IMG/VR virus record: IMGVR_UViG_3300021077_000115
Location: 238,064 to 302,063 of that record
Length of the DNA stretch: 64,000 nucleotides
Strand: one strand, 5' to 3'
Source: a virus
Position numbers and translations under genes: made by a program. This document shows, one piece after another, positions 31,071 to 51,500 of this stretch. The notes under the pieces were generated by a model that was given only the letters and a program-made list of their open reading frames with translations, ran no database searches and was not told the DNA's origin. The number at the start of each line of letters is the position of its first letter. The stretch's first letter is position 1.

Positions 31071-31117
31071 ACTTTTGTATATATCTATACTTTCGCCACC
31101 ATTTCAGCTTCATGGCA

Positions 31118-33042: not shown

Positions 33043-33370
33043 TGTATATTTTTACGCTATCCTCAAATAGCGATTTACCTTCTATGATAGATTTTTCAAT
33101 CAATTTATTAATGGCCTCTACTAACCTTGGTCGCTTTTGTTTGAAACAGATATCTATTTTTCTTTTCAATGCCCCTAATTCCTGATCTGATATGTCTTTA
33201 TGAATCAAATCTTCAAGCATCCAGGTTCGAATGTGAACTATAATTAGCTTGTCAAGAACTTCCCCTAAACTATCAGTCTCAATATATTCTTTAGCTTCAG
33301 GAATCTCTTTCTTACCACAGATTTCTGCAACATACTCTTTTATCCGCAAATCTATAATGTCCTTTGGCAT
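33035..33370 (-). CDS. hypothetical protein (111 aa)
   Basis: ORF in operon orientation. Confidence 0.4.
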   Translation of the reverse strand: MPKDIIDLRIKEYVAEICGKKEIPEAKEYIETDSLGEVLDKLIIVHIRTWMLEDLIHKDISDQELGALKRKIDICFKQKRPRLVEAINKLIEKSIIEGKSLFEDSVKIYNE

Positions 33371-33375
33371 ATAAA

Positions 33376-34185: not shown

Positions 34186-35265
34186 TTACCTCGAATCTGC
34201 TAAGCTCTCAACCATAGTTACTAATTTATCAGTCAGGAAATTCCAATCATTATCCTTGCGATCAAGATGAGTTTGAATTAGTTCTTGTCTTATTTTGTAA
34301 TACTCATCTTTGAAATCATTACTCAAAAGTCTCTTTAGATTGGCTAGATTTTGATCTTGGCGCGCAGGGTCATATGTCCACTTCAGGATATCGTGACCAT
34401 ATGGATCCCACCACTCTTCGTGGCCAAATAGCGGAAGTCCTTGGCAAAGGAACTCATTAGCAAAGTATGGAAACCCTTCTGAATATGAGGTGTGTGCCAA
34501 ATATGCAAAATCGGATAATATCTCTCTAACCGCTCTGTCTGTTTTGTAAATGTGACTTATCACATTATACGATGAACTGTCAAAGTTGTTTGACTTTAGC
34601 ATATCTATGAGCTGTTCTGCATTTTTGCCACCAGCATCTTTCCCACCTCTATTATAGATTAGCATTTTCAATTTAGATAATCTAATATTTCTATTATAGA
34701 ATGTAGAGAAATAGGCTTTGTCTATTGGGTGCGGAACTAGCTCTATATTTTGTATGCTTGATACTAGTAATTGTTTCGTTTCAAGCACATCAATATTATC
34801 TGAATTCCATTTGCGTATTGCTACATCATTAGTTTTGAAGATTGCGCCATAAAGCCCTTCAAGTAAAGATGGGTGAGTGGGATATGTATTAGATCCTATT
34901 CCATACTTATTGAATTTACCATACTTCCACTTATCAACTTCAAAATTATCGTTGTCAATAATAATTGAGCGCTCAGGAAACTTTTTCAATTGGTAAGAGG
35001 GGCGTGCAGAAATGAATACATCTTTATTTGTCATTTGTATTTCATTTTTAGGTAATACAAACTCTTCAGTTGGCCCATTTTTCCAATTGGTATATATTGT
35101 ATTCTTTGGAAATTTTGCTAATATAGAATTGTATACAAAATATGTTATCTGATCCCATGAACATCTTCTGCCATGCAAATAACCATTTGGATTTTCTGGA
35201 GGTAATGATATGTAGATATTCATAACCTTATCCACTCTGGAGGTGCTAGGTCTGTTGTTGACCAT
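34186..35265 (-). CDS. hypothetical protein (359 aa)
   Basis: ORF in operon orientation within the glycan island. Confidence 0.45.
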   Translation of the reverse strand: MVNNRPSTSRVDKVMNIYISLPPENPNGYLHGRRCSWDQITYFVYNSILAKFPKNTIYTNWKNGPTEEFVLPKNEIQMTNKDVFISARPSYQLKKFPERSIIIDNDNFEVDKWKYGKFNKYGIGSNTYPTHPSLLEGLYGAIFKTNDVAIRKWNSDNIDVLETKQLLVSSIQNIELVPHPIDKAYFSTFYNRNIRLSKLKMLIYNRGGKDAGGKNAEQLIDMLKSNNFDSSSYNVISHIYKTDRAVREILSDFAYLAHTSYSEGFPYFANEFLCQGLPLFGHEEWWDPYGHDILKWTYDPARQDQNLANLKRLLSNDFKDEYYKIRQELIQTHLDRKDNDWNFLTDKLVTMVESLADSR

Positions 35266-36005
35266 GCGCTATAAGCGGGACCAAACCAATTGCTAGGCGC
35301 AACAACTACCTTATCTTCTGCCTTACTTAACCACGCCGCCCACCAAGAAAAAGAACTATTTGCTATAATGAAATCGGAACAACTAACCATTTTACTGAAA
35401 TCAGAAATTGTAGAAGATGTCTCGTTTATAGTAAACTCATTGCCCTTGAAGTTTTGTTTGCACCATTCAGTATCATCAGAAAATACCATGAATTTCTTCG
35501 TTGGAATCTTTTCTGCTGCACTCATATAATATTGCATCGTTTGAGTTGGATGATGCTTTGGATAGTTTAAATAATCTCCACGGCGAACATGAATACAACA
35601 ATAATCCTTCATGTCTTCAACTGGAATTGGCGATAATATTTCTTTGATGTAATCCTTGCAATTATCAAAGTATCTCCAGCTTTGAAAATAACCAGATAAT
35701 GAACAGTTATTCTGAAATGGTATCTCTACATAATGATACCCAGATTCTTTGTATTGTGTAGATATCTTAATAGAAGACTTATCAATAAAATACTCGTCTG
35801 GTATGTTTGTCCAACTTTGAAATTCCCATTTTGGAAAGCAAAACTGAACATTGTATCTCTTCGCATATCCAATAGTTGCAGCTATCTGAAATAAGGAATT
35901 ACCAAATCGACCATGATGCCCAAGTTCAATAAATGTAGCTGTCATATCATCTATCCATGATTCTCTTGTATGGAAGCATCGACCTGATTCTTCTTTCTGT
36001 TTCAA
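35220..36005 (-). CDS. alpha-1,2-fucosyltransferase-like glycosyltransferase (GT11 family)
   Basis: CIHVRRGDYLNY carries the HxRRxD motif I that is diagnostic of GT11 fucosyltransferases. The conserved C-terminal hydrophobic/aromatic region is also present. Confidence 0.65.
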   Translation of the reverse strand: MKQKEESGRCFHTRESWIDDMTATFIELGHHGRFGNSLFQIAATIGYAKRYNVQFCFPKWEFQSWTNIPDEYFIDKSSIKISTQYKESGYHYVEIPFQNNCSLSGYFQSWRYFDNCKDYIKEILSPIPVEDMKDYCCIHVRRGDYLNYPKHHPTQTMQYYMSAAEKIPTKKFMVFSDDTEWCKQNFKGNEFTINETSSTISDFSKMVSCSDFIIANSSFSWWAAWLSKAEDKVVVAPSNWFGPAYSAWSTTDLAPPEWIRL

Positions 36006-36705
36006 TTTGCAAACTTCGGTCTACTTTCGCTTCATTAATTGGCGATGTATAATTGTATACATATAATACATCTGGTATAAATGATTGCTTAGGACCGGCA
36101 AGCTCAAGCATTGGGAACATAGTAGCCAAATCTCCAGCCGCCCTAAACCAATCACCTTTGTACATCAAATCTTCTTTGCGTATCATCTTGTAAAGCCAAG
36201 CATAATGAGTTCTTAAGTGAGATGAACACCATTGATAGCGCCTAAACATATTGGAATCAATTATGTTCTTAGGTATCTCACACGAAAATCCATGACTATT
36301 ATCTGAATATGATATCCATTGACCATAGGTAATCCATATATCTTTTTCATTGTACTCTCTATTTACACGAGTCAATACATCATTGTTTGCAAGCCAATCA
36401 TCACCATCTAACAGAACAACAATCTCGTCATCATCACAACTATGTATCATGTTGTATGTATTACCAATTGGTAATAGACGTTTAGTATTTCTAGTCAGAA
36501 TAATTTTATGATTATTGTCATGCTTGGAGATAATGCGTTCTACCTCATCGGCGGTCCCATCAGTTGAACAATCATCTGCATAAATAATCCTAAAGTCTGG
36601 ATAATTCTGGTTCAAGGCAGAAAGAAGATTCTTCTCGCACCAATCTATATTTTGATAGCTTGGAATTACAATAACAAATCGATTAACTTTTGACATACAA
36701 AGCAT
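35947..36705 (-). CDS. glycosyltransferase family 2
   Basis: VIVIPSYQNIDWCEKNLLSALNQNYPDFRIIYADDCSTDGT is the GT2 N-terminal motif. The DxD is VLLDGDDW. Confidence 0.7.
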   Translation of the reverse strand: MLCMSKVNRFVIVIPSYQNIDWCEKNLLSALNQNYPDFRIIYADDCSTDGTADEVERIISKHDNNHKIILTRNTKRLLPIGNTYNMIHSCDDDEIVVLLDGDDWLANNDVLTRVNREYNEKDIWITYGQWISYSDNSHGFSCEIPKNIIDSNMFRRYQWCSSHLRTHYAWLYKMIRKEDLMYKGDWFRAAGDLATMFPMLELAGPKQSFIPDVLYVYNYTSPINEAKVDRSLQIETERRIRSMLPYKRIMDR

Positions 36706-37366
36706 CTCCCCAAGTCATACCATCCCACCAGGTACCAACTCTCTTGAATCCATAGCTACCCAGAAAGCCATCTATCTCACCAACTAAAGCACAGTTTTTG
36801 TATAACTCTGCTCTATTAACCTCAGCATATACATAATCTATGCCCTTCAAAGTATCAATTCCACCTTTAAAAACCTCCAACTCATATCCCTGTACATCAA
36901 TATTTATGAAGTTGTACAAAGCACAATCAAATGGCAACAAATCAAGCTTTGTAACACCAACCTTAATCTTGCCGTTGAATATTATATCTGGATACTGACT
37001 TAGGTGCTGATGTGGCTGTAATAAAGACGATGATTGACCTTGATTGGCAACTTCAGTAAACATATCTGCTTCGCCTTCAAAATTGCCAAGAGCAACATTG
37101 AATAATGTGCACTCGCTCCCAACATTTTTTGAAAGAATGTTGAAGTTGTCTAGTTGTGGCTCTACAAATATTATATTAGTCAGTCCGATGTCTTTGTAAT
37201 AAACATACTCCTGACCACGGTGGCCTCCTATGTGAATTACACCGCGAATATTCAAATCAAAATCAGAAATAAGATTCGGAAGAGGTTTTAGCATATAAAC
37301 CCATATATAACACGATATATTTGCAATTATGGATATTAATATTGTATACGACGCTATCAAAACCAC
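36683..37366 (-). CDS. FkbM-family methyltransferase. It probably starts at the Met near 37294.
   Basis: VIHIGGHRGQEYVYY...ALGNFEGEADMF...IDVQGYELEVFKG matches Methyltransf_21 (FkbM). The annotated N-terminal 24 aa are hydrophobic and overlap the divergent GT10 gene. Confidence 0.6.
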   Translation of the reverse strand: MVLIASYTILISIIANISCYIWVYMLKPLPNLISDFDLNIRGVIHIGGHRGQEYVYYKDIGLTNIIFVEPQLDNFNILSKNVGSECTLFNVALGNFEGEADMFTEVANQGQSSSLLQPHQHLSQYPDIIFNGKIKVGVTKLDLLPFDCALYNFINIDVQGYELEVFKGGIDTLKGIDYVYAEVNRAELYKNCALVGEIDGFLGSYGFKRVGTWWDGMTWGDALYVKS

Positions 37367-38252
37367 CGAGATTTTATATGAAGGACCAGAGGGGAAGGTA
37401 TATTATTCGCCTACTAGAAAAGAAAGAATGCCAAATATTTTTCAAAGCCTATGCAACAACCCAAACCCAAATGATAGCGCTCTTATGGCTGAACCAATAG
37501 TAGTCTCACCAGGAAACTACGATGTTAATTATCTGTCAAGGTTCAGGAAAGTATTTGGATGTTTTGAAAAAGCTTTCGAAAACACCAAAATCAAAGAAAA
37601 ATATGTGTGCGTAAATTATGGATATGATTTGAAAATTCACTCTCCATTATTGCAAATAGATGCAGAATCTATAAGAGAAAATTGGAAATCATGGAACCAA
37701 CGCAACGGAATGATTGTTATTGCCGGTGGTAGTAAGAATTCCACACATCAGGCATCAATTTATTGCCTAAGATTAATGATTGCAGATTTGTTCTATCAAA
37801 ACAATTTTGAAGTAGCATGGTATGGTCAGCAACACTGCAATAGACCATATTACAAAGGAGCGGTTCACGACAAAATTAGTGAAATAGGCAAATACAAGTT
37901 TGTAATATGTTCTGAAAATACATATGACCCAATTTATTCACATAATTATCTAACAGAAAAATTACCTCATGCTATTTACGGAGGAGCTCTTCCTCTTTAT
38001 ATTGGCTGCTATAATATAGATGACCTTGCACCTAAACATACATTTTTTGATCTGAGAAATTTTGTCTTACAAAATTACGGCCAAGTAACACTATTAAAAG
38101 AACCATTGCTAGAAGCTATAAAATCATTTAGTCAAGAAAATTTCGAACGATATCAAGAGGCAGCATATCAATTCATAAAAGATCCTCTTGGTATTAATTA
38201 TCATATGGATCCTAATAGAGTTTACAAAAAAATGTTAGATACATTACAATAG
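37329..38252 (+). CDS. alpha-1,3-fucosyltransferase-like glycosyltransferase (GT10 family)
   Basis: KYKFVICSENTYDPIYSHNYLTEKLPHAIYGGALPLYIG matches the GT10 signature YKFYLAFENS..pDYiTEKlw.nal.aGaVPVvlG. Confidence 0.7.
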   Translation: MDINIVYDAIKTTEILYEGPEGKVYYSPTRKERMPNIFQSLCNNPNPNDSALMAEPIVVSPGNYDVNYLSRFRKVFGCFEKAFENTKIKEKYVCVNYGYDLKIHSPLLQIDAESIRENWKSWNQRNGMIVIAGGSKNSTHQASIYCLRLMIADLFYQNNFEVAWYGQQHCNRPYYKGAVHDKISEIGKYKFVICSENTYDPIYSHNYLTEKLPHAIYGGALPLYIGCYNIDDLAPKHTFFDLRNFVLQNYGQVTLLKEPLLEAIKSFSQENFERYQEAAYQFIKDPLGINYHMDPNRVYKKMLDTLQ

Positions 38253-38969
38253 ATTGAATATCTTATTCAATTCATTGTTATACTTCGAATATGGCCTAAC
38301 CGAATGAATATCATAATAGTAACCTTTGCTAACCAATTTTCTATCGTATCTCCAAGTTGAGCGATCTATCCTGTGCCCATTCTGACCGCCATCTCGCTGA
38401 ATGAAATGAAACAGTGACTTATACTCATAATTATTTATTAGCATTGTTGAAGATACTTCATCAACAGACCAATGCTCATTACCATCATGGTTAGTATTAA
38501 TTCCATTTGAGGATATAATTGCTTTATCTATATACATATCAAAATCAACATTCCCAAGAACCTTGCTGTAAGTATTCCCAGATGCAATATGATAGCAAGC
38601 CGGGATATTGTTTGCACATGGGTTTATGTGAACGTATTTATCGTTCGAGATCTGCTCTAGTTGAGTATTGAAGTAAAAATTTGACAGCGGATACATATCA
38701 ATATCAGAAATAATACCAATCTTATTTCCAAGTTGTGTCGCATACCAATACCTAACAATTTGACATTGTAAAGATATTGAAAATCTTGGAATTGGCTTTA
38801 TTCTAATTACATTACCATATTCTTCTGATATATTAATACTCTCGTTATCTTCTATATAAAGCAATATAGGGTTTATATTCAATCTTCTCCATGCTTTAGA
38901 CACAGAAGGCCAAAAATCCAAATAGAATGAATTTGAGTTAGAACTATTTATAGCAACATCTATTTTCAT
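38244..38969 (-). CDS. hypothetical protein (241 aa)
   Basis: ORF coupled (ATGA-type overlap) to the UDP-xylose synthase gene. Confidence 0.45.
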   Translation of the reverse strand: MKIDVAINSSNSNSFYLDFWPSVSKAWRRLNINPILLYIEDNESINISEEYGNVIRIKPIPRFSISLQCQIVRYWYATQLGNKIGIISDIDMYPLSNFYFNTQLEQISNDKYVHINPCANNIPACYHIASGNTYSKVLGNVDFDMYIDKAIISSNGINTNHDGNEHWSVDEVSSTMLINNYEYKSLFHFIQRDGGQNGHRIDRSTWRYDRKLVSKGYYYDIHSVRPYSKYNNELNKIFNLL

Positions 38970-39901
38970 TACAAGATTTTCCTAAAATAAGATATAGTCT
39001 CCTTAAGCCCATCATCTATATTTACGGATGGCTCCCAAGAAAGTTTGTTCTTAGCCAAGCTAATATCTGGTTTACGTTGCTTTGGATCATCCTGCGGAAG
39101 AGATTTGAATATCAGTTTCGACTTAGCTTTAGTCTGAGTCAATATCTTCTCTGCTAGCTCTAACATCGTAAACTCACCAGGATTTCCCAGATTGATTGGT
39201 CCGGTAAAGCCAGCCTCTGTATCCATCATGCGCAACATGCCTTCCACCAAATCATCAACATAACAGAAAGAACGTGTCTGCCTGCCATCTCCATAGATTG
39301 TGATGTCCTCACCACGTAAGGCCTGCACAATGAAATTGGAAACTACGCGCCCATCGTTTGGATGCATTCGAGGCCCATAGGTATTGAATATCCTAATCAC
39401 TTTGATATCAAGGTTATGCTGCCTGTGATAATCGAAAAACAATGTCTCGGCACAGCGCTTACCCTCATCATAACAACTGCGAATGCCAATCGGATTAACT
39501 CGGCCCCAATAACTTTCAGGCTGGGGATGTACCTCAGGATCACCATAGACTTCTGAGGTTGAAGCCTGAATAATGCGTGCTTTGACTCGTTTAGCCAGGC
39601 CAAGCATGTTGATGGCCCCGTGTACGGATGTTTTGGTCGTTTGCACAGGGTCAAACTGGTAGTGCACTGGGGATGCTGGGCAGGCTAGATTGAAAATTCG
39701 CTCAACTTCAACATACAGAGGAAATGTCACATCGTGTCGCATCATTTCAAAAAGTGGATTATTAAGCAGATGAGCAATGTTCTTCTTGGTACCCGTGAAG
39801 TAATTGTCCACGCAAAGAACTTCGTTCCCAGACTTCAACAGACGTTCACATAGATGCGAGCCAATAAATCCAGCGCCGCCAGTGACCAAAACTTTATTCA
39901 T
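38969..39901 (-). CDS. UDP-glucuronate decarboxylase (UDP-xylose synthase, UXS/ArnA-like SDR)
   Basis: [37 protein letters not shown] is highly characteristic of UXS. The catalytic Y-x-x-x-K is [15 protein letters not shown] is also present. Confidence 0.85.
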
Positions 39902-39903
39902 AA

Positions 39904-40731
39904 TTATCCTTTGAATGGAATATGGATTGGCTTAAAGTGATTCATATACAATCCACAATTCTTCTTGAAAGCATCTACAAGCTCATCATGTTGCTGAGTT
40001 TTGAATTTACGATATTCATTTACCTCACCATTATCCTCACCCAAATGAATGCCCATCTTTTCAACGTATCCCATCTTAAAGTTGGCAACTCTGGCGCGAA
40101 TTCCAAAATCGCTGTCCTCAAGGCCATACTTATTGTACTCAGTATTGAAGAAGCCTATCATTTGGTGTAGCTGTTTGCGAAACACCATACAGGCCGTTCC
40201 CAAATTACCAGCTGGCTTATCCTGGAAGACGCAGCCATTATGAGTTACCAAAGGATAGGATTTTGGTTCGAAGTTTACCCCAATAGCGCCATAGCCTTTA
40301 TTGGACTCCAGAATTTTGATGCTGTCCTCTAACCATCCATTTGGTAGTTGAACATCATTATCAATAGTGCAATACCAAGTTGGCTTCAATTCATCAGCCT
40401 TCTTTAGGGCTAGATTGCGACCAATGGCAATACCCTTATTCTCTGGGAGCAGAATCAACTCTACTTCTTTCAATGGGTCTTTGTCGCGGCCAGGGGCCAT
40501 CATTGAGCTGGCAAGTTTTAACTTCTTGAGATATTCCGGGGTTCCATCACTTGATCCGTTATCTACTATTACAAGAGAAAATGGATGTTTCGTGCTACTA
40601 GATAAAGCAGCTACCGTCTTTTTGGTAAGATCAAGCCGATCATATGTTACCATCATTAAAACAGTGTCAGTTTTCATTATTTTTCCTTTCATGCGGACAA
40701 TAACCATAGGATCCGCGAGATACAGCGGCAT
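39904..40731 (-). CDS. glycosyltransferase family 2
   Basis: [40 protein letters not shown]. The DxD is TIDNDVQL. Confidence 0.7.
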
Positions 40732-40734
40732 CTG

Positions 40735-41694
40735 TCATAAGCCCTCGCAAATCCCAAACACATCTATCGGAGATACATGTCGATCTGTAAATATATCATT
40801 GTTCACCCCAAGAAATTCGGCATTTTTAAACAAACTATACTGATTGTCCAGGTGTCTCGAAATAAGTTTGGCATCTGATATAATAAGAGAAATCAACAAC
40901 CAATTAATATCATTTGATAATACCATCCAAGACTTCTTGATTGTTTGTAATATGTTTCTTAGACTATATTCAATTGCCAATATATTTGTTCCATAAAAGG
41001 CGCTGGTTTTATGTGTAAACACAATAACTTTCCAACCCTTATGAGATGCCAGTTGAGAAAATTCTTTGATGTTCTGTAAGTTCCATCTTAGGATATCTTT
41101 ATTGGTATTGCTTAAGACAATAGATATAACTTTGGTAGTTTGCCTAACTCTACCAGTGTTATGCAGCTCATCAAAGAATTCTGTTCCAAGACCACGAAGC
41201 TTTGGGACATAATTTCTCCAAGGAATCATGATATTTCCAGACATCTGTTCTAAAACAGGAGCCTTAACGACATCCGGATACTTTCCCCAATAACTTTTGC
41301 GAACCAGATAGTTGTTCAGGATGTTTAGGTAGGCATTACCACCGTTATCTAAGAATAACGGAACTGGATACTGCTTCAATATCTCTGGCGTTAGTTTGAC
41401 CGGACTGATCTTGCATAATCCCTGAGCCCTAACAAAAAACGAATACTCAGGATTGCCAAGCCAATAAATCTTGTGAGAAGAATCAAAAGATACAAGAGCT
41501 TCAGCTGCGCTCAAAGAGAAAAACGATTCTAACAAACCGCCGAATGCAGCAATTATAATCTCACGACCATCCAGAACTTTATGCCAAGTTTCGAAATCAA
41601 TTTCTGGAATAATATACTTTCCATTACTCAATTTCCAGGGAATTCCTGGTGAAAATGGAAAGAACCTAGACCTGTATTTCTTTTTCGGCTTCAT
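40735..41694 (-). CDS. putative glycosyltransferase (GT9/heptosyltransferase-like fold?)
   Basis: The N-terminal REIIIAAFGGLLESFFSLSAAEAL and the central ISIVLSNTNK...W...FSQLASHKGWKVIVFT loosely resemble GT9 blocks. This is a weak call. Confidence 0.3.
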   Translation of the reverse strand: MKPKKKYRSRFFPFSPGIPWKLSNGKYIIPEIDFETWHKVLDGREIIIAAFGGLLESFFSLSAAEALVSFDSSHKIYWLGNPEYSFFVRAQGLCKISPVKLTPEILKQYPVPLFLDNGGNAYLNILNNYLVRKSYWGKYPDVVKAPVLEQMSGNIMIPWRNYVPKLRGLGTEFFDELHNTGRVRQTTKVISIVLSNTNKDILRWNLQNIKEFSQLASHKGWKVIVFTHKTSAFYGTNILAIEYSLRNILQTIKKSWMVLSNDINWLLISLIISDAKLISRHLDNQYSLFKNAEFLGVNNDIFTDRHVSPIDVFGICEGL

Positions 41695-42485
41695 TAGTCG
41701 TCATACTTGTAAATCCCAGACCATTTACTTCGAAATAACTTTGCATTAGTACCCATCATTAATTTGTGCATTGGGTTCTTCTTTAAAGTTGCGCTTTCCT
41801 CATGGAATACATTGGTCTTACCACAATACATAATCTTCTTATTCATGCCATACTTTACAGATAAGCAGGCATCGATGTCTTCGAATGACCAGAAGAAGCC
41901 CTCGTCCATTCCAACTCTACCGCTCTTGTTTGAAATGCAGATCCTCCTATAATCGCCAGCCCGAATCAAGACCAATGCTCCAGTTACGGCTTGGAATTCA
42001 CGATTCTTCTTAGCACTTTCATCGGCCACTTCTTGATGCCGATAATGGTATGGGAAATAGTTATACTTCTTGGAAAAATACACACCAGCATGCTGAAGCT
42101 TTTGCCCATCCGGATACAATATCCTAGCGCCAACCATACCTACATCATCAGTTAGCAACTTGAACATTTCCACAACCGAATTCTTGTCATTGAACCACAA
42201 ATCATTGTTGAGCAGCATGATAACGTCATCATCAGCCGGCTTGGTTCGTTCAAATAGAACGTTCATTCCACCAGCAAATGAATCTGTATTGTGGCCACAG
42301 AAAAATGTATCCACTCTATCGCTTTGTATTGACGACAGATACTCAGCCGATCCATCCTTTGAACCATTATCCTTGATCCACCATTTGTAATCATACATCT
42401 CAACGGCTGGTATGAGAGATTTGTAAAGGCGCTCTATTTTTTCCTTAGCGTTCCAATGAAGCGTAAATATCATCAATTTGCTCAT
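41694..42485 (-). CDS. glycosyltransferase, GT2-like
   Basis: The N-terminal Rossmann-like region WIKDNGSKDGSAEYL is followed by the DxD-type motif VIMLLNNDLWF. Confidence 0.5.
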   Translation of the reverse strand: MSKLMIFTLHWNAKEKIERLYKSLIPAVEMYDYKWWIKDNGSKDGSAEYLSSIQSDRVDTFFCGHNTDSFAGGMNVLFERTKPADDDVIMLLNNDLWFNDKNSVVEMFKLLTDDVGMVGARILYPDGQKLQHAGVYFSKKYNYFPYHYRHQEVADESAKKNREFQAVTGALVLIRAGDYRRICISNKSGRVGMDEGFFWSFEDIDACLSVKYGMNKKIMYCGKTNVFHEESATLKKNPMHKLMMGTNAKLFRSKWSGIYKYDD

Positions 42486-43477
42486 AAAGAAACCCTCTCT
42501 GTAATTTTACATTGCTTTTCGTGACAATGAGGACACCAAGTCCCAATATTCCTGACGCTGTGCATTGTAGCCAGCCATTCATGGCCTGACTTACATTTCC
42601 ATCGCAACTTTTTATTTGCCGAGACGTATTCATCGGACAAACAAAACCCACCTCGATTAGAGGCCACAAACTTAGCATCGTCTAATGTTAGTTTCTTCAA
42701 ACCGCAACAAGACGGACACCAACTTCCATTTTCTATAGAATACCCAACCGCACTCCATGTGTGGCCATGTTCACATTGCCAAACCAATGGCTCATGAAAA
42801 TTAATATACGCATCAGATAAACACTTACCATATCTTTCAGACGCCAAATCCTTGTAATAACCAAGCCTATCAAAACCACCTTGAAGCTTAGACATATCTA
42901 CATGTATATTGTTAATGCTTGCTGGCAATGATATCCTCAACCTTTCGCACTCTTTGACCAAAAATTCACCAAGATCCTTTAGCTTAATTTCTCTAAATAT
43001 CTCGGGTATAATCATCAGCTTAACTCCAAGTTCTCTGCATTTATTGGCCTTGAACAAATCTCTCGACTTTTGCTTATTCAACGAAGATCCGTCGCGATGA
43101 AAGTATGGTACATTTGTATTGTGCTGAACTCCATTGTGTTCAAAAGCAATGGCCAACTCATGACAATATCCGTCAAGCTCTAAATTATATTTGCTGTGTT
43201 TCAGCCAAGCTGGCCGTATCTTTACAAATGGCTTTCCGAATATAGCCTCTAAATACAATCTACAAATACCCTCCCCAATATTTGAATTGCATTGGTTGCA
43301 CCAAGACTTATAATATTGGATATGCTTCCAAGCCAGAGAAAACGCATGTCCAAATTCACACTCCCACATCAATGGCTTATTTGCGTTTATATAAATGCTA
43401 CTAAGGCACTTGCCGTTTTTGGATTTGGCAAGTTCATTACAGTCGTTGATTGTTATCTTCCTATATTGATTAGACAT
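42482..43477 (-). CDS. protein with three tandem zinc-ribbon repeats (DUF4379-like 'probable zinc-ribbon' domain)
   Basis: Three repeats: KCLSSIYINANKPLMWECEFGHAFSLAWKHIQYYKSWCNQC / KCLSDAYINFHEPLVWQCEHGHTWSAVGYSIENGSWCPSCC / FCLSDEYVSANKKLRWKCKSGHEWLATMHSVRNIGTWCPHC. Confidence 0.55.
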   Translation of the reverse strand: MSNQYRKITINDCNELAKSKNGKCLSSIYINANKPLMWECEFGHAFSLAWKHIQYYKSWCNQCNSNIGEGICRLYLEAIFGKPFVKIRPAWLKHSKYNLELDGYCHELAIAFEHNGVQHNTNVPYFHRDGSSLNKQKSRDLFKANKCRELGVKLMIIPEIFREIKLKDLGEFLVKECERLRISLPASINNIHVDMSKLQGGFDRLGYYKDLASERYGKCLSDAYINFHEPLVWQCEHGHTWSAVGYSIENGSWCPSCCGLKKLTLDDAKFVASNRGGFCLSDEYVSANKKLRWKCKSGHEWLATMHSVRNIGTWCPHCHEKQCKITERVSL

Positions 43478-43510
43478 AGCATTCCTATCAGTAAGAATAT
43501 ATAATTATGC

Positions 43511-44191
43511 CTATTTATTGCCCCATATTTCTATAAACGTTTTCTTAGACTTCAAATACAGATCTGATAATACTTTCTTCCCGGTAACTCTGCCAATGTG
43601 TCTGACAGGCACATCAACAACTTTAAACTCAATACCAAGGCCCTTAGCTCTAAAGGATAGGTCAGTATCCTCGAAGTAAGATATGAACTTAGTAGAAAAT
43701 GGACCAACATCGCCTTCTAGAATCAAACGATCCCAAGTAGCAACAGAGGCAGTGATATTCCATCCGCTTAGGTAGAAAAGAAACCCAGTCGTAGGAAGCT
43801 TGTTCATCTCACGAACAAAGTTCAAATGAATATCTAACAGCCCAATGGTTGGACCTACAAGGAACCCATTTTGAGCCTCACGAATAATAGGCTCTGTCCA
43901 CACAGAATTTTCCTCGGCAATACGAATATCATTGTTGAGGAACATTATGTTTTCATAACCGAGACTGACAGCCCTTTCGTAACCAGTATTGCACCCCTTA
44001 GCAAACCCAAGATTCTTGGAATGTCGTACGACAGACAATCTGGCTGATGATTGTAGTTGTTTGGTACTGTCTGTGCTTCCATTATCCACTACAACAAACC
44101 CATGGTCTTGTGGAAGATGGGATAGATCTGATAATGCGCGCTTTGTATATGCCCAATTGTTCCAGGCCGGAATAACGATAGCTAAACTCAT
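43511..44191 (-). CDS. glycosyltransferase family 2
   Basis: LAIVIPAWNNWAYTKRALSDLSHLPQDHGFVVVDNGSTDST. The DxD is FLNNDIRI. Confidence 0.65.
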   Translation of the reverse strand: MSLAIVIPAWNNWAYTKRALSDLSHLPQDHGFVVVDNGSTDSTKQLQSSARLSVVRHSKNLGFAKGCNTGYERAVSLGYENIMFLNNDIRIAEENSVWTEPIIREAQNGFLVGPTIGLLDIHLNFVREMNKLPTTGFLFYLSGWNITASVATWDRLILEGDVGPFSTKFISYFEDTDLSFRAKGLGIEFKVVDVPVRHIGRVTGKKVLSDLYLKSKKTFIEIWGNK

Positions 44192-44203
44192 TTATTTCTC
44201 CAT

Positions 44204-45325
44204 TCAAGGTACGCACATGTCTATAATTTTTTGGGCTGCATTATTCCAAGTGAACTTGCTAGCAGTATCTGTCATATTTTGAGCAAACCCAGCTTTCAAT
44301 GAATCTAATTCAAATACAGCCCTTCGAAGTTTTTGGGCAGCGTCATCAGTATCAATCTCAAAATGAACAGCAAATGGATTGAATGCCCAATATTGATGAT
44401 CTCTTGGTGCCCTTGTGATTGTGCCATCTATAAGAATAGAATTCTCATCATTACAGAAATCTAGTTGTCCACCATATCTAGGAACTACATTAACAATTCC
44501 AGAAGCTAGAGCTTCCAATGATGGTAGATGCCAACACTCAGCATAAGTAGCAGAGAAATTTATATCACAAGACTTATAGATGTCTGCGATATTTGTTATA
44601 TATGAATGGACAAACTCTACTTCGGCGTGCTGTGGAAACTTAGATTGAAAAGTTTTAAACAACGCAGTGAAGTCTATGTCAAATGGATGGTCTTTCTTGT
44701 TATGCTTGAATACTTTAGCTATCAAACATACATCATCATCCTTGGTAAAAGCTTTACCAAAAGCCTTAAGAGCTAAATGTAATGCTTTGCGCCGATGTGG
44801 CTGGGCAATATTAAGAAGTATCTTCTTTGTCTTCCTAGTATTTAGCTTGAATGTATTATCACTCTTGAAATCTTCAAGATTTATTCCATGAGGAACTACC
44901 ATCATCTTTTCTATGGGGATACCCATACTAATAAATACATCTCTAGAGAAATTAGATGAAGGAAGAACAAGGTCAGTTGATTTGTAAAACTTAGAAAAAC
45001 CTTGAAGTAATGCTAAGTACTTATCATCTGACCTTTTATTGTTGTATTCGTAATTCCAAATACCAAATCTATTCTTTGTACCCCATTTAAGATAATTTGG
45101 CCAATTATGAGGTGCTGTGTAGCTAATTTGGCAGTCATATAATCCAGATGGTTCTTGTTTAACAAATGGCATTATATCCTCTGGTATAAATCTCTTTTCA
45201 AGTCCATCTGTAGAAATAAACTCTACATTATGTCCTAACTTAATAAGTGATCTGCCTAAATTCTGCCCAACCACACTCCAACTATGATTTTGGCCAAATA
45301 GAAATTGTTGGATTTTTATTCTCAT
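44204..45325 (-). CDS. GT-B glycosyltransferase (GT4-like C-terminal domain)
   Basis: The C-terminal ECWHLPSLEALASGIVNVVPRYGGQLDFCNDENSILIDG resembles the GT4 E-x7-E region. Confidence 0.5.
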   Translation of the reverse strand: MRIKIQQFLFGQNHSWSVVGQNLGRSLIKLGHNVEFISTDGLEKRFIPEDIMPFVKQEPSGLYDCQISYTAPHNWPNYLKWGTKNRFGIWNYEYNNKRSDDKYLALLQGFSKFYKSTDLVLPSSNFSRDVFISMGIPIEKMMVVPHGINLEDFKSDNTFKLNTRKTKKILLNIAQPHRRKALHLALKAFGKAFTKDDDVCLIAKVFKHNKKDHPFDIDFTALFKTFQSKFPQHAEVEFVHSYITNIADIYKSCDINFSATYAECWHLPSLEALASGIVNVVPRYGGQLDFCNDENSILIDGTITRAPRDHQYWAFNPFAVHFEIDTDDAAQKLRRAVFELDSLKAGFAQNMTDTASKFTWNNAAQKIIDMCVP

Positions 45326-45363
45326 ATACTATATGAGATATTGAATTACATATCCTCGACTTA

Positions 45364-45498
45364 TTACTCGCAATCACCTGCATCGCAAGCTACCGCTCCG
45401 GCATCCGAAACAGATGCATCAGCTTGGTGATTTGGCTTGTTGGTACAAGAGACTAATAAAACCGACAAAAACAAAAACAATGCAACGAACCCTTTCAT
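45364..45498 (-). CDS. small lipoprotein (44 aa precursor; an alternative start at 45510 gives 48 aa)
   Basis: Translation MKGFVALFLFLSVLLVSC|TNKPNHQADASVSDAGAVACDAGDCE. The signal peptide is classical with lipobox L-V-S-C. A GGAGAA Shine-Dalgarno lies upstream. The gene sits in a 250-bp gap directly downstream of the 999-aa fibre-like gene. It is not in the ORF track because it is under 60 aa. Confidence 0.5.
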   Translation of the reverse strand: MKGFVALFLFLSVLLVSCTNKPNHQADASVSDAGAVACDAGDCE

Positions 45499-45574
45499 TT
45501 TATTCTCCATTTTAAAGCAGCAATACCCAGTCACTCATAAATGAATGGCATTAGGTAACTACTGTTTTAGTTTT

Positions 45575-48574
45575 TTATGTTACGCCAGAAGCGAACAAAC
45601 CAGCAACTTGATTTGATGGAATCACCAATGGTGTATTATTCCATCCGGCTTTCTTGAGATATACCGTGATCATGATCTTGGTTCTCAATTCGTTATACAA
45701 GGCACTATTTGATATATCATTCATCGTAAGCGTCATCAAGCCAGTAGCCTGGTCCATATTTACGCCAATGATATTATCTACAATAATACCGTAGCCATCC
45801 TGATCCATTCCATCCTGATTTGGGAATATTGATTGAATCGACACACCAAATCTCACTTGATTTTTAACAAATGCATCAAGTTTTACAGTAGTACAATCAG
45901 AAAACCTAGCCGCCGGATATCCAGCTGAAGTAAAACCATCTCCATCGTCTACAACAAGTTTCTGGAACACGTTGATTATAGCGTGATTGAACATTACCTC
46001 TTGCGGAAGTTCCAAGACAATAAAATGAATGTCAACGTCTTGCTTGAAATAGTTGCCATCCTTATCGATGATTTGCCCTTTGCCAATAATAAGATTATCC
46101 GGAACGAAGAAATCATTTCTTCCAGGATCGCATGCGCCTCCGAATTCAAATGGATCTATGCAAACAACAGGAGTTGTATTTGAGCACTGACCAGTTATTT
46201 GATCTACCAAGCTAGCAGTTGAGCTGGGAAATGTAAATGTCGCAGGAACAAGCCTGGCATTACTACTAACTTGAAGCATGTAGTCTTTCCAGAACAATAT
46301 TGGGTTTACAACAAATGGTAGTGGGATAAATGGCACTGCAAGGAAAGCAGGATCATCAGCTGAAATATCCGGTATGCTATTATAACCGTAGTATTGTAGC
46401 TCAATACTAGACAAATTAGATATATCTACTACATTTAGACTATCACCATTGATTCTAATATACCCATCGCAATTGTTGTATCCATCATAACGACAGCAAT
46501 CATAATAACCATCATAACGACCGGTTGGGTTTTGAACCTCTATTTCAAGGTGCGTAAAGCTAGAGCCTGCTGGGAATGAGTGATAGCCGTCCTTAGAAAC
46601 ATATGCTGAAATCCTATCAACATCTGCATGCGTAATATAGCCATCTCCATCAACATCAGCTCGAATGATCTCTAGAGTATCAAAAACCCCAGCATTAATT
46701 AGAGCCTGCGTTGATTCTAAAGATAACGATTGCCCAAGGAGAGCTGTGGCACGATCTATATCGCTTGAGTCAATAACTCCATCGCCATTAACATCTCCAT
46801 ACCCATCTGTGCACAATCGTACGTTAGAAATGGTGTAACCAATACCTGCGCAATTATTATTTGGAATTAGTTTGCTACCAATAAGCTGCTGCGAAATCAA
46901 ATCAGGATTTGGATTTATTACAATAAACTTATTGCCCTTAGCTAATCCAGGGAAGATTTGAGTACCAGAAATTATGTTGTTCACTTTGGCATTGACATCT
47001 CGCGCACAGCCAATGATCAAAGGATCATTAGATTCACTCAATGTAGCCAAGTTGGCATTGGTAACGAAACTAAAACTTGGTTCGAACTGCTGGCGTGAAA
47101 AAACTGGATTGCCAGTACGCTCATCTTGTTGCTGTTGAGATTGTGATTCAATAGCTTCTACTACAGCAGTGTTTAGAGTGTTTTGCCCGGTATCTGCAAA
47201 TGGGTTTTGGCCAAATGAATAATCTACAACCGCACCCAGTTCATTGACTATGGTCTTTGTAATCTGGACACCATTACCAGCATCATAGGCCATACCATCA
47301 GCAACCTTGGCGGCATCTGACCATACTTGATACCAAATATCTTCTTCTGTAACATCTGTCCATTCACTGGTGAATATGGAAAGACGATCATCTGTACTCT
47401 GACTGTTTCCTATTCCCGTAAACAAAGTACCAACGCTACTGTCTCCGGCACGTCCAATTGAAATGGCATAATATTTACCTGGTACAATAACAGGATTTGA
47501 TGCGTTACCAAGAATTGAATTGTTGTATATCAGGTCAATTGGTTGAAGAACATCAGTAAGAATGTAACCTAGATTCTGCAAGCTTTGCTTGTTGATGCTA
47601 AACTGAGTTATCGGAATAGGATTTGGATCAAATTCAATTGCCAACCCAGGCACCAATTCATTTGGAGAAGTAATGGTGCTTTGAAGCTCGTATACACTAA
47701 CTACAAGCTCTCCACTCCAATCGAAATAATTGGCTATAACCGAACCATTCTTACGAACGCCAAGTAGAACGGTAATCTTCTGGATATTATTGCATTTGGC
47801 CAAAAACTTTTCAGCTACACGCGTTGTAACATCTCCAGTAGCAAATTCAAAATCTCGCTTCACAGTTGTATTGATTTGAAGAGCATCAACATTATATTGA
47901 GGCCCAATACCTGCCTGAATCGTTTGAGCTAAGGTAACCGCTGGGTTTGGAGATGAGTTTTTGAAATCTCTGAAAAATAAGTTCGGTTGCACATCTTGTG
48001 CAATCATAATAGGATCGCGAGACAACTCAAGTGCCGTTGTTTCTCGGATAACTACACGTCCCCCTAGAGCACGAGAACAATTGTCATTACCAAGAAAGTC
48101 ATTAAAGAATACCGAAAGTATTCGGGTGTAGTGTTTCTTGGTAACTTGCTTCTCTTTCTTGTAAAAGTAAAAACTATCGTATTGTATGTTTTCCTGGAAA
48201 TCCAAACCAATAATCAATACCTTGGTACTGAGACGGCCTCCAACATTCGAAAACCCATTAGCATCAGAATCAGATAGTTCTACTTCAAGTTGATTTCCCA
48301 ACTTACTATCACTCGGTTGCGCTAATGGCCTCAGACCAGTACCATCTAAATCGTGAGATGCTATCAGTGCCTCTTGATCAGAGAACATATTATCAGTATC
48401 AAAAACTACATTTTGAGCCGATGCAGATGGAAGTACGCCCGAGCCAAAGTGATTTTGTATAATCGAAGCATCAATCTTGACATTCCGATCTTGCTCTGTA
48501 GTCATATCGGTCTGATCGACTTGCTGACCGTCGTACCAAAGAACTTGAATTTGTGATACTGGATTTTGGTTCAT
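45575..48574 (-). CDS. tail fibre / virion structural-like protein (999 aa) with a dockerin-like calcium-binding pair
   Basis: It contains DVNGDGVIDSSDIDRATALL and DVDGDGYITHADVDRISAYV (DxNxDGxIxxxD F-hand pair). Multiple DGY tripeptides. Cys-rich RYDGYYDCCRYDGYNNCDGY. Confidence 0.5.
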   Translation of the reverse strand: MNQNPVSQIQVLWYDGQQVDQTDMTTEQDRNVKIDASIIQNHFGSGVLPSASAQNVVFDTDNMFSDQEALIASHDLDGTGLRPLAQPSDSKLGNQLEVELSDSDANGFSNVGGRLSTKVLIIGLDFQENIQYDSFYFYKKEKQVTKKHYTRILSVFFNDFLGNDNCSRALGGRVVIRETTALELSRDPIMIAQDVQPNLFFRDFKNSSPNPAVTLAQTIQAGIGPQYNVDALQINTTVKRDFEFATGDVTTRVAEKFLAKCNNIQKITVLLGVRKNGSVIANYFDWSGELVVSVYELQSTITSPNELVPGLAIEFDPNPIPITQFSINKQSLQNLGYILTDVLQPIDLIYNNSILGNASNPVIVPGKYYAISIGRAGDSSVGTLFTGIGNSQSTDDRLSIFTSEWTDVTEEDIWYQVWSDAAKVADGMAYDAGNGVQITKTIVNELGAVVDYSFGQNPFADTGQNTLNTAVVEAIESQSQQQQDERTGNPVFSRQQFEPSFSFVTNANLATLSESNDPLIIGCARDVNAKVNNIISGTQIFPGLAKGNKFIVINPNPDLISQQLIGSKLIPNNNCAGIGYTISNVRLCTDGYGDVNGDGVIDSSDIDRATALLGQSLSLESTQALINAGVFDTLEIIRADVDGDGYITHADVDRISAYVSKDGYHSFPAGSSFTHLEIEVQNPTGRYDGYYDCCRYDGYNNCDGYIRINGDSLNVVDISNLSSIELQYYGYNSIPDISADDPAFLAVPFIPLPFVVNPILFWKDYMLQVSSNARLVPATFTFPSSTASLVDQITGQCSNTTPVVCIDPFEFGGACDPGRNDFFVPDNLIIGKGQIIDKDGNYFKQDVDIHFIVLELPQEVMFNHAIINVFQKLVVDDGDGFTSAGYPAARFSDCTTVKLDAFVKNQVRFGVSIQSIFPNQDGMDQDGYGIIVDNIIGVNMDQATGLMTLTMNDISNSALYNELRTKIMITVYLKKAGWNNTPLVIPSNQVAGLFASGVT
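46600..46800 (-). repeat. dockerin-like duplicated Ca-binding loop segment inside the 999-aa gene
   Basis: Two 12-residue D-x-[ND]-G-D-G-x-I-x-x-x-D loops are separated by about 25 residues. I mapped them to 46771-46795 and 46612-46665 by reverse translation. Confidence 0.5.
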
Positions 48575-48576
48575 AT

Positions 48577-51500
48577 TTACTTCACATATTTAATACCAAC
48601 CGTAGAAACGGCCGGCTTGAGGGCATTGATCAAGGCCTCCAACACGGTTTGGATACGAAGATCTCCTGTAACTATGTTAAAAGAATCAATGATATTGATG
48701 TCAAAATTGAAAATGCCGAAAGTTGGATCGTAAATTACCGCGAAATCATCTGTTTTTTGTACAGATTTATCGAAGTCAAGCAAGAAAGTTGTGAAAGCAT
48801 CCGTAATAGATGGGTAGATGAAGTCCGTATTACTGTTGAAGTAAACGTCTCGCGGCTGTCCTGCTATTACAATAGGATCAATTGCTTTGTTCGAAATCTT
48901 CAAGTTATCAAATCTCGCCTGAGCTCCAAAGTTTCCTGCGAAATCTTGTCCAACCGAGAACTGCTGTACAGTATCAGTAAAGTTTATATCAGATCTGAAG
49001 ATTTGGCTTCCCACTCCACCGACAGCCGCCTGGCCCCAGATGACACCTTGCCCGAACAACATATTGCCTTGTCCGAATAGTTGCGCCCCTCGTTCCTCTC
49101 CATCTACGAATAGACGAATCTCATCGTTATTGTCTTTACGATTGAACTTGAATGACGCACGAATTCTATGCCATGTATCGCGAGGCCAGAACACAGGCTG
49201 TCGAACTTGATATTCTTTGCTATTGGCATTTATGGTGAAGCAAATAAAGCCCTGTGGATCTTTGGAGATTGTCAACCTATCTCCACGAACACCAGTTGGA
49301 ATATATGCAACTTTTACCGGAGTGTTCTGATATGGCAATGGAGTATTCAAGATGAGAGTTCTTCCATCACTGGCAATACTTCCACCATTGAAATATTCAG
49401 TTCCCTGCAAAGTTGTATCGTTAACCAAGCGCACATACAATACGCTACTGGCTCGTCTAGATAGTTTAACACGACCCTTCGTGATGCTTACGTCTTCTTC
49501 GATGATATTAGCAGCGGCATCGAAGTATATTCTAACTCCAGGATCATTATAGGTATCATATCTTGGGCTTATCCAGAACTCAATCAAACCTTCGCTGGCT
49601 GTGTTAAGCAAACCGCCATTATCAAATATAAGGCCTCTATCTTTGATTACTATACTGTGACCAAATTTTGAATTGACACTGCTGCCAGATTGAACGTATT
49701 CCTTACTTGCAAAGGTATAGAAATCGCTATCATTAATTAGCGGTAGAGATTCACAATGGAACAAAGCTAGCGTATCTATATTCTTAACAAACGGAGATAT
49801 CTTGGTTGCTCCGGTTGTGATAGATTCCTCATTGTTACCAATCGTTTCGCCAATACGAGTATCCGTAAGTTGTCTGTTCAGAATTCTAATCTCATCAAGA
49901 ATACCCTTTACTGGATTTTGTAATGTGATATCATTTCCAATTATTCCAGTTTCCTTTGTCAAAGGATCAAATGGTACGGATAGATAAGAGGCAAAGTCAA
50001 TATCATACCATCCTGGCGGCAACATAAAGGCAGAATCGGTGAAGCCTGCTATCTCCAAAAATATGAATCCGTTTTGGAATCCACTACGCCCAATGCTGAT
50101 ATTGTACGCAGCATAAGATCCATTGGTGAAGTACCCATCAACACTATGATCTAGTTGAATCGTATAGTTATCTATTTTGTCTATTATCTTGTAGATACCA
50201 GCCGAAGATGGCGGCGAGGTAATTTTGAGCAAGTTACCAACAATAGATGCTGGGAAGTAGCCTTGTAGATCCCTAACTATGGTATAGCCACCATAGCCAT
50301 CAGATTCCAAAGAGCCACCAGACTGAGTTTGGTATGCGAACCTAATAACCGGATACAGGTTGTTTCCGTTAGGCTGTGTAATTGTGTATGCCTCTTTTAT
50401 TTCAACGGCTATACTATCGTCGTAGCCATCAATTGGAGCCACATCTACAATAATCGAATCAACTTCTTGCCATTTATTTACTGTAAGTTTCTTACCAGGA
50501 TATGTAAATGTAAGTGTTTCGCTTGTTACGGATCCCAAGGCAGCATATCCATCTAGCTTCACAGTTACTGGAACTGAGAAATTAACATTATCTCCAGTAA
50601 TACGCACTTCCAATATGCGGCCTTCTGTAAGTAAAGCATTTGAATTTTGCAAGAATGTACTTGGTTGTGTGATATCGGCATTCTCTCCTGGTCCTGTTCC
50701 GAAAATTAAATTATCCCCATAACCGTCAACTAGGAAATTTCCAAAATCATCAATTAAGTAGATAAAACTAGTACCTCCAAAAGTTGCCTCAAAAATATAT
50801 CCATCTATCACGGCTGAATTTTCTGGACCGATTGAAGTCAATGGCAATACAACAGTCTTAATAGACACATCATCCAGATTGATTGGAGGAGGAAGCCCAG
50901 TTTTAAGTAGAGAATTATTACTCCACAGGAATACCCTATCCTTAGATCGCCTATGGTTCAAACCAAACGTTTTGATAAGCACAGTATCGCCGGCTAGGGT
51001 GTTATCAAAAATTGTCAGAATCCTCTGGTTAAGAGTGTTCCTATCAATTGAGTAAGAAGGGACTCCAGCTCTTGTTCCTGGAATTTCACGTTCATTTCCA
51101 TATCCGTCTACAATAAATACACCTATGTTCTTGTAGATATCAATCTCAGTTCCGACAATAAACTGTGGCGGATTAATGATAAATCTAGCATCATTCAAAG
51201 AAGCTGACATATTGGCACTCAAGGTCATCTGAGTCCCCGATGCATTGGATATTACATACTTACCAAACCCTTGTTCCATGATGTCAATAGTGTACCCATC
51301 ATCAAGCGCAGATAGACTTAAGGATGGAGATATTACAATATTAGATCCTTGGGTTGTTATAAGGTCATTGCCAGTTATTGAATTTGCAAATACAACCCCA
51401 ACGATCTGTTCTGGAACCACTGTTCTAAATCTATTATAAGATGCAACATCTGGAATATTACCATAGCGCGCAAGGTTTGGAGTTTCAAAACCGTCAACAT

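Follow-up and report, generated by a model that had tools for sequence, protein, structure and literature searches.

The 64,000-nt stretch analysed here (the window; positions 238,064 to 302,063 of the IMG/VR virus record IMGVR_UViG_3300021077_000115) contains a 249-bp gap at 45326-45574, with an open reading frame (ORF) for a 999-aa fibre-like protein on one side and a GT1/GT4 glycosyltransferase (GT) gene on the other. Within this gap, on the minus strand, lies a 44-codon ORF with the translation MKGFVALFLFLSVLLVSCTNKPNHQADASVSDAGAVACDAGDCE. It begins with an ATG at 45498-45496 and is closed by tandem stops (TAA 45366-45364, then TAA 45363-45361). An initial annotation had proposed a 44-aa ORF in a gap of about 250 bp between a fibre-like gene and a glycan island, preceded by a Shine-Dalgarno (SD) site and opening with a type II signal peptide that ends in an L-V-S-C lipobox. 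The ORF reads exactly as proposed, the two named neighbours do flank it (45575-48574 and 44204-45325), and both the SD site and the signal peptide stand up to the comparisons given below. We conclude that the ORF is, very probably, a true gene through which an uncultured jumbo phage encodes a 44-aa prolipoprotein.

The N-terminus of the ORF has the properties of a lipoprotein signal peptide. It passes both a PS51257-like and a stricter G+LPPv2-like lipobox pattern, our own re-implementations of PROSITE PS51257 and G+LPPv2. In the n-region, K2 supplies the K/R looked for within the first seven residues, and every family member carries K or R at position 2 or 3. The h-region, where about 7-22 uncharged residues were looked for, has an uncharged 11-residue core, GFVALFLFLSV, with a mean Kyte-Doolittle hydropathy of 2.98, taken over 10 residues ahead of the lipobox. 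The lipobox L-V-S-C matches the pattern [LVI][ASTVI][GAS]C, and its cysteine, Cys18, falls within the range of positions 15-35. That cysteine is invariant, and the residue before it is S, A or G, in all of the approximately 18 family variants. An AlphaFold2 model built from a 12-member alignment places a helix at residues 2-18, the signal peptide, and the sub-threshold NCBIfam and PDB matches of the peptide are to lipoprotein signal peptides. Such an N-terminus is rare by chance: Markov shuffles of the 64-kb window gave 0.25 passing ORFs per 64 kb, or about 0.001 per 249-bp gap, and the 44-aa ORF is the only one in the window that passes the lipoprotein patterns. The +2 residue is Thr rather than Asp and, by the E. 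coli +2 rule, the lipoprotein would be sorted to the outer membrane.

Translation signals agree with this start. We compared the locus with relatives gathered from viral and metagenome collections (loci numbered with L, proteins with P). The GGAG ahead of the ATG is kept at an unchanged distance in eight of them (L003, L006, L007, L008, L014, L015, L140 and L141), and SD-like motifs precede 24 of the 43 window genes, against a background of 13%. Two alternative in-frame starts exist, an ATG at 45510 (48 aa) and a GTG at 45534 (56 aa). These longer starts are not conserved: in L008, L015 and L141 the fibre-gene stop lies only 13-16 nt before the ATG. In public assemblies, gene callers predict the exact 44-aa protein on five contigs, the longest of 391,957 bp.

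The ORF also evolves as a protein-coding gene. Independent metagenome contigs carry three further close variants, at 83-90% identity. Among these four alleles, the Nei-Gojobori ratio of non-synonymous to synonymous substitution rates (dN/dS) is 0.10-0.19 for the whole ORF and 0.00-0.19 for the mature part, and the deficit of non-synonymous changes is significant against neutrality (P = 2e-5 to 4e-3). Variable sites at codon positions 1, 2 and 3 number 8, 5 and 18, and the single indel among the alleles, a DAS duplication in L006, is in frame. Profile searches over 5.8 billion and 1.84 billion proteins raised the family to about 18 variants in all, about a dozen of them beyond the locus survey. 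The ORF, SD site, start codon and lipobox are kept across these variants despite a tail identity of 13-45%. All members found in these searches are lipoproteins of 37-83 aa except P0135 (2094 aa, low-complexity repeats), which we took to be a spurious match. A scan of viral contigs with the small-protein alignment, which is too short and degenerate for this use, gave no confirmed match. Table 1 collects the features of the locus.

Table 1. Features at and around the lipoprotein gene (window coordinates unless a locus is named).
Feature	Position	Strand	Remarks
Prolipoprotein coding sequence, 44 aa	45364..45498	minus	stop TAA 45364-45366 included; translation read directly; dN/dS 0.10-0.19
Signal peptide, residues 1-17, MKGFVALFLFLSVLLVS	45448..45498	minus	n-region K2 and hydrophobic core; predicted by pattern rules
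Lipobox L-V-S-C, residues 15-18	45445..45456	minus	Cys18 (45445-45447) is the predicted acylation and signal peptidase II site
Mature lipopeptide CTNKPNHQADASVSDAGAVACDAGDCE	45367..45447	minus	Cys18 plus 26 residues; net charge -4; 58% A/G/S/T/D
Shine-Dalgarno GGAG	45505..45508	minus	6 nt ahead of the ATG; read directly
Stem-loop in the 76-nt fibre/lipoprotein spacer	45513..45569	minus	minimum free energy -17.5 kcal/mol; z = -2.97 against shuffles
AT-rich perfect palindrome CTCATATAgTATATGAG	45321..45337	minus	overlaps the GT gene start codon; kept in L006 and L007
999-aa baseplate-distal fibre-like protein	45575..48574	minus	dockerin-type Ca-binding module and CBM-like beta-sandwich domains
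373-aa GT1/GT4 glycosyltransferase	44204..45325	minus	first gene of the glycan island
Thioredoxin-like lipoproteins in the post-fibre slot	L034 752-1246 and 1246-1857; L042 1592-2047; L030 3379-3885		

Conservation within the family is concentrated at the N-terminus. Relative to the window copy, identity is 39-72% over the signal peptide and 13-45% over the mature part, compared with 70-82% for the flanking fibre C-terminus and GT. Conservation extends to the lipobox, to DAG-like repeats and, in part, to an N-proximal stretch of about 10 residues with the motif C-T-(T)-N-K-(P/T)..Q-x-D; the C-terminal tail is hypervariable and contains AG-x triplet-like repeats. Across the family, the mature part ranges from 23 to 60 aa in length, from 54 to 76% in Ala/Gly/Ser/Thr/Asp content and from -7 to +2 in net charge, with 0-3 prolines (one in the window copy) and 0-3 extra cysteines that are not conserved. 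In the AlphaFold2 model it has no secondary structure, with a predicted local distance difference test score (pLDDT) below 50. The initial annotation had also described a cysteine-containing mature peptide. This is true of the window copy, which has two extra cysteines, but it is not a family trait: P0003 carries C38Y, and L015 and the long forms do not have the pair.

The C-terminus differs between the long forms and the window type. Most of the long forms (P0006, P0008, P0011, P0013, P0014, P0136 and L014) share the ending AGV(A/G)GK; in the window copy and its close relatives the ending is ...GDCE, and the C-terminal Lys is missing. The window type looks like a truncated longer form (compare P0008, ...DAGTVDTCDASECDASECDGG...) from which the AGV(A/G)GK end is missing. 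A related contig of this phage clade (P0006/P0021, 463,377 bp) is labelled 'Candidatus Pacearchaeota archaeon' at NCBI and is almost certainly a mis-binned giant-phage contig.

We then considered the position of the gene, using 5 viral and 45 metagenome loci collected through the 999-aa protein. Where family members could be placed on contigs (7 variants), all lie between a protein of about 990 aa and the GT, and the two most divergent members that we checked also occupy this fibre/GT slot. The forms found there are the 44-aa window type, a 41-aa form (L015), a 67-aa form (L008/L016) and a 73-aa form (L014). The gene occurs only in the closest clade, in which the neighbouring fibre-like protein is at least about 74% identical; sister phages at 71-74% identity do not carry it, and it is absent from L009-L012, L018, L022, L023, L138 and L139. 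In most loci, down to about 37% identity, the same GT (MRIKIQQFLFG...) follows the fibre-like gene immediately, as it does in most relatives that have no lipoprotein gene. We infer with some force that the lipoprotein gene is a lineage-specific accessory insertion.

Other genes have entered the same junction. HNH-like/treble-clef endonuclease ORFs lie there in L003 (1089-1238), L011 (9042-9789), L017 (3873-4622) and L021 (1141-1761), with HNH_4 matches at or slightly under threshold among the ORFs scanned, and in L011 the GT gene's first 18 codons occur a second time, on the far side of the insert. The idea that the lipoprotein gene travels with the fibre gene in L003-5 was dropped, as homology is broken in those loci by the insertion of a treble-clef ORF that looks like the HNH-like ones. 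In distant relatives, whose fibre C-terminus is 41-46% identical, the slot holds unrelated lipoproteins of 150-200 aa with CxxC thioredoxin-like domains (Table 1). One of these scores Thioredoxin_2 at 1e-11 and is DsbH-like; phages with such genes would supply the host envelope with an exported disulfide oxidoreductase. That unrelated lipoproteins recur here suggests that the slot tends to hold exported accessory genes, and fits a slot for genes whose products act on the envelope.

Transcription signals place the gene at the end of the upstream operon. In L008, L015 and L141 the spacer between fibre gene and lipoprotein ATG is 16-19 nt long and contains the SD site. A GC-rich hairpin with a T-run terminator immediately follows the lipoprotein gene in L003-5, L140 and L141, at the position that the AT-rich palindrome occupies in the window, and in L138, which has no lipoprotein gene, an equivalent terminator immediately follows the fibre gene. 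The short spacers and the terminator positions together suggest that the gene entered after the stop codon of the fibre gene and ahead of the terminator of the operon. It is then probably the last cistron of a late baseplate/fibre operon.

The window, like some relatives, presents a longer spacer, of 76 nt, and a predicted stem-loop within it. Equivalents occur in L003 (about 870-925), L006, L007, L014 (about 3775-3825) and L140 (about 3935-3985), with compensatory changes at 3 of 14 pairs among the six sequences; the short-spacer loci L008, L015 and L141 do not have it. It has no U-run, hence is not a canonical terminator, and it has no Rfam match. This stem-loop could be a terminator that has decayed or become leaky, or some other regulatory element. 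A sigma-70 and terminator scan of 44800-46200 returned nothing on the minus strand and no canonical terminator, and no motif of the 76-nt spacer that might serve as a phage promoter was found repeated elsewhere in the window.

The gene on the fibre side encodes a large, uniformly conserved protein. An AlphaFold2 model of the 999-aa protein (pLDDT 82, predicted template modelling score 0.75) shows a chain of beta-sandwich domains with a dockerin-type module, and in structure it matches the DUF4815 protein of the phi812 baseplate best. Its family comprises at least 415 clusters, all of about 975-1005 aa and aligning end to end. Given the beta-sandwich/dockerin model, 'baseplate-distal, probably glycan-binding' is a reasonable description, and the protein is a candidate receptor-binding protein. 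It is preceded by a 2265-aa protein.

On the other side begins a glycan island of about 15 kb (approximately 31000-45325) that encodes GT2, GT4, GT10 and GT11 enzymes, epimerases and a methyltransferase. One of these, a 226-aa GT2 (43511-44191), has a weak match to GtrB-like O-antigen conversion. The island enzymes are all soluble, and no flippase-, polymerase- or oligosaccharyltransferase-like protein with multiple transmembrane domains was found in 31-45 kb. This suggests cytoplasmic glycosylation of a phage protein, perhaps of the virion, rather than of a host surface polysaccharide. A DUF4379 treble-clef gene also lies inside the island (42482-43477).

The rest of the window is that of a large myovirus-like phage. 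It encodes baseplate J, a gp25-like wedge protein, DnaB and UvsW helicases and a CCA-adding enzyme. The gene for the ribonucleotide reductase large subunit (15752-19678) is split by an intein with a LAGLIDADG endonuclease, and a second LAGLIDADG domain lies in a 589-aa ORF (22248-24017) that matches terminase and DnaC-like PHROGs. There are also a TubZ/PhuZ-like tubulin (27005-28399) and a sigma-70-family factor (19685-20344). A phage tubulin and a sigma factor are typically found in jumbo phages with a replication compartment and a transcription programme of their own. Neither megablast of 44000-49000 nor tblastn of the 999-aa protein found a match among 50,697 GenBank phages; this is an uncultured jumbo phage with no cultured relative.

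Hints of the host are few. A tRNA search made for this purpose found none. A UXS-like UDP-sugar epimerase/decarboxylase gene (38969-39901) encodes a protein 85-86% identical to products of Myxococcota metagenome-assembled genomes and 75-82% identical to those of many Pseudomonadota; the enzyme is highly conserved in many phyla. Similarity this high is unusual for a phage gene and, as a weak hint of the host, may reflect either recent acquisition from it or simply a very conserved enzyme. The SD usage described above argues against a Bacteroidota host.

What might such a lipoprotein do? After Sec export, the host Lgt and LspA enzymes would acylate Cys18 and remove residues 1-17. What would remain is an acidic lipopeptide of 27 residues that has no predicted structure and is anchored in the envelope of the host. 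The reading that we rank first, tentatively and by analogy with better-known phages, is that this lipopeptide acts in superinfection exclusion or against readsorption. Its synthesis in an infected cell would hinder later adsorption or DNA entry, whether by the same phage or by related ones, and the proposal covers superinfection exclusion as well as an effect that keeps progeny from adhering to debris and to cells undergoing lysis. Instead of forming a folded domain like that of Llp, the acylated N-terminal part would dock onto an outer-membrane protein or machine. We propose N-terminal action because only the acylated N-terminus and the first 10 or so residues are conserved, leaving the tail free to vary. 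We place exclusion first because it is the only established role of small non-spanin phage lipoproteins at such a position, and also because an accessory, fast-evolving envelope protein fits phage-phage or phage-host conflict.

The comparison is with Llp, Cor and Rtp45, small phage lipoproteins whose genes adjoin tail-tip or receptor-binding-protein genes and which act from the periplasmic side to block FhuA or LptD (PMC9586334, PMC12685063). Like T5 Llp (PDB 7QJF, 8A60), the window protein has a type II signal peptide, is small and accessory, and would be located in the envelope; the llp gene adjoins a tail-tip or receptor-binding-protein gene (PMC9586334), and the window gene adjoins that of a baseplate-distal protein with CBM-like domains. 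In T1-like and lambdoid siphophages, the cor and rtp45 genes lie directly downstream of the last tail-tip gene (the gpJ locus), at the end of the tail cluster (PMC9586334, PMC12685063); the window gene is likewise at the end of a tail/baseplate cluster, and its apparent late co-transcription matches theirs. A second parallel, which is functional speculation, is with LptM (YifL), a host lipoprotein that binds LptDE through its lipidated N-terminal 10 or so residues (PMC12685063). These first residues are the part resolved in LptDE complexes with other partners, and LptM is mostly ordered in the LptDE-only map (PMC12685063). LptM too is short, and the N-proximal-only conservation of the window family may parallel its docking through about 10 residues; however, it is Pro/Thr/Gln-rich and not homologous.

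Several observations weigh against the exclusion reading. T5 Llp, whose mature part has about 62 residues, folds into a compact beta-rich structure locked by a C11-C58 disulfide and is expressed early (bioRxiv 10.64898/2026.03.26.714494; PMC9586334), whereas the window mature part has 26 residues, is predicted to be disordered, carries a second cysteine that is not conserved and is apparently expressed late. Cor is about 20% identical to Llp and has the disulfide in common with it (PMC9586334), and Rtp45, of about 6 kDa, is fully ordered on LptDE, forming a beta-sheet with LptD (PMC12685063). The window family differs from both in having neither a predicted fold nor a conserved disulfide, and in belonging to a myovirus-like jumbo phage with a conserved baseplate neighbour; the window peptide is also much shorter than Llp and Rtp45. 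A folded domain of about 55-62 aa with a conserved disulfide is thus not what we found (26 aa, pLDDT below 50). Searches of PHROG, Pfam and NCBIfam with the peptide and 12 family members gave no match above threshold to Llp, Cor, Rtp45 or any other family, only signal-peptide matches, and a PDB profile search, with the same kind of matches, did not return Llp (7QJF/8A60) or Rtp45 (9RPS), although both were expected there. Judged by its predicted features, the family should not be filed with Llp, Cor and Rtp45.

The context of the gene adds further difficulties. Late co-transcription would protect little early in infection. The initial annotation had read the position as fitting the pattern of T5 llp; the gene is indeed directly downstream of the 999-aa gene, but the slot also takes HNH-like ORFs and the neighbour is conserved throughout. 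As the junction is a hot-spot for insertions, a place beside the fibre gene is weaker evidence of a functional link and may be incidental. No C-terminal swap that tracks the presence of the lipoprotein was seen in the 999-aa or the 2265-aa protein, both of which are uniformly conserved. These two proteins have CBM-like and laminin-G-like domains, a hint that the receptors are glycans and not proteins, and the glycan island could itself provide exclusion. Finally, what we can say of the host points only weakly to an SD-using, probably diderm bacterium.

An apparently late, small lipoprotein of outer-membrane type could instead assist lysis, acting at its last step, either as half of a spanin, the outer-membrane o-spanin, with a distant partner in the genome of approximately 390 kb, or as a stand-alone outer-membrane-destabilising lipopeptide resembling entericidin B or a disruptin. 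We consider this rather unlikely. Some features speak for it: o-spanins are small, largely unstructured late lipoproteins, often left unannotated and frequently with periplasmic cysteines (PMC6139136), and the window copy, with its two extra cysteines, resembles the lambda Rz1 type in its lipobox, small size, scant predicted structure and apparent late expression. Moreover, 91 of 677 surveyed phages have no recognisable spanin, so other outer-membrane disruptors must exist (PMC6139136). Two-component spanin genes, however, are embedded, overlapped, or separated but contiguous (PMC6139136), and no i-spanin-like gene (an N-terminal transmembrane domain followed by a periplasmic coiled coil) is adjacent to, embedded in or overlapping the window gene. 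Pfam recognised no endolysin or holin among the 37 window ORFs scanned. The pattern of conservation is also the reverse of that in Rz1, where the C-terminal region is conserved; here the N-proximal part is kept and the C-terminus is the most variable, and the peptide has a single Pro and cysteines that are not conserved. A lysis gene should moreover be core, whereas this one is accessory and absent from sister phages.

The entericidin variant of this idea fares no better. Mature EcnB (entericidin B) has about 27 residues and is rich in G, A, D and S; the window peptide, at 26-27 residues and rich in A, G, D and S, is thus similar in size class, mature length and composition. No amphipathic helix is predicted in it. 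We rejected homology, since hhalign to EcnA and EcnB aligns only the signal peptide and 3-5 residues. NCBIfam PRK09810 matched 3 of the 12 members weakly, with a best E-value of 0.021, and neither the peptide nor any of the 12 members matched the Pfam Entericidin, glycine-zipper or Lpp families.

About as improbable as a part in lysis is some other role in the envelope: a flexible tether, spacer or competitor, an Lpp-like linkage through the Lys of the long forms, a load on the Lgt/LspA/Lol pathway, or a moron gene of some other benefit to the infected cell. Better conservation of the signal peptide and lipobox (39-72%) than of the mature part (13-45%) would suit such roles, as would a tail of 23-60 aa whose AG-x triplet-like repeats suggest repeat expansion and contraction. 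The AGV(A/G)GK ending of most long variants recalls Braun's lipoprotein Lpp, in which the C-terminal Lys is the site of attachment to peptidoglycan. The window copy, by contrast, has no C-terminal Lys and no predicted coiled coil; the tether idea is inapplicable to it for want of that Lys, yet the type ending in ...GDCE is under purifying selection. The absence of Pfam glycine-zipper and Lpp matches speaks in the same direction, and we know of no precedent for a phage mimic of Lpp or for a phage lipoprotein that jams the pathway.

It is very unlikely that the ORF has no present function, as a chance ORF or as the 5' remnant of a captured host lipoprotein gene. The ORF is very short, its family is narrow and absent from sister lineages, and the mature part resembles no more than the disordered 'tether' that ordinary lipoproteins have. 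Against this stand the retention of the ORF, SD site, start and lipobox in about 18 variants, a dN/dS significantly under neutrality, and the in-frame DAS indel of L006.

Least probable of all is that the Ala/Ser/Thr/Asp-rich tail serves as an acceptor for the adjacent phage GTs and is displayed on the envelope: the gene does head the island of GTs, epimerases and a methyltransferase, and Ala/Ser-rich low-complexity regions of lipoproteins are typical targets of O-glycosylation in several bacteria, but the island and its first GT are kept beside the fibre gene in many relatives that have no lipoprotein, cytoplasmic GTs could not reach an exported peptide given that no flippase- or oligosaccharyltransferase-like protein lies in 31-45 kb, and neither the window copy nor P0007-P0009, the members inspected by eye, contain the Bacteroidota motif D-(S/T)-(A/I/L/V/M/T).

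The family is a narrow orphan among the small phage envelope lipoproteins encoded at the end of the tail/baseplate genes. A bolder form of the exclusion proposal, which we consider rather unlikely, is that it represents a new class of minimal phage lipopeptides, encoded as the last baseplate cistron in a clade of uncultured jumbo phages and built of a signal peptide, a lipobox, the N-proximal motif and a disordered tail of freely varying length. They would act through the acylated N-terminus alone, plugging or jamming LptDE, Bam or a receptor barrel in a way similar to the docking of LptM. If true, exclusion or envelope takeover would be accomplished by a lipopeptide and not by a folded protein, and the thioredoxin-like lipoproteins in the same slot would mark a general 'envelope-effector slot' of such phages.

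Small phage lipoproteins are the best-understood way in which a phage switches off its own receptor from inside the cell. To our knowledge, the receptor-blocking examples have so far come from coliphage siphoviruses, and all of them are folded. The family described here could extend this strategy to a very different phage group and molecular form, or it may indicate another envelope function. The case also shows that a true gene under selection can go unseen in a gap of about 250 bp in a giant-phage genome, and that a search for envelope effectors may usefully turn to the position behind the baseplate-distal gene. For the present, the value of the finding is a defined candidate family of about 18 variants.

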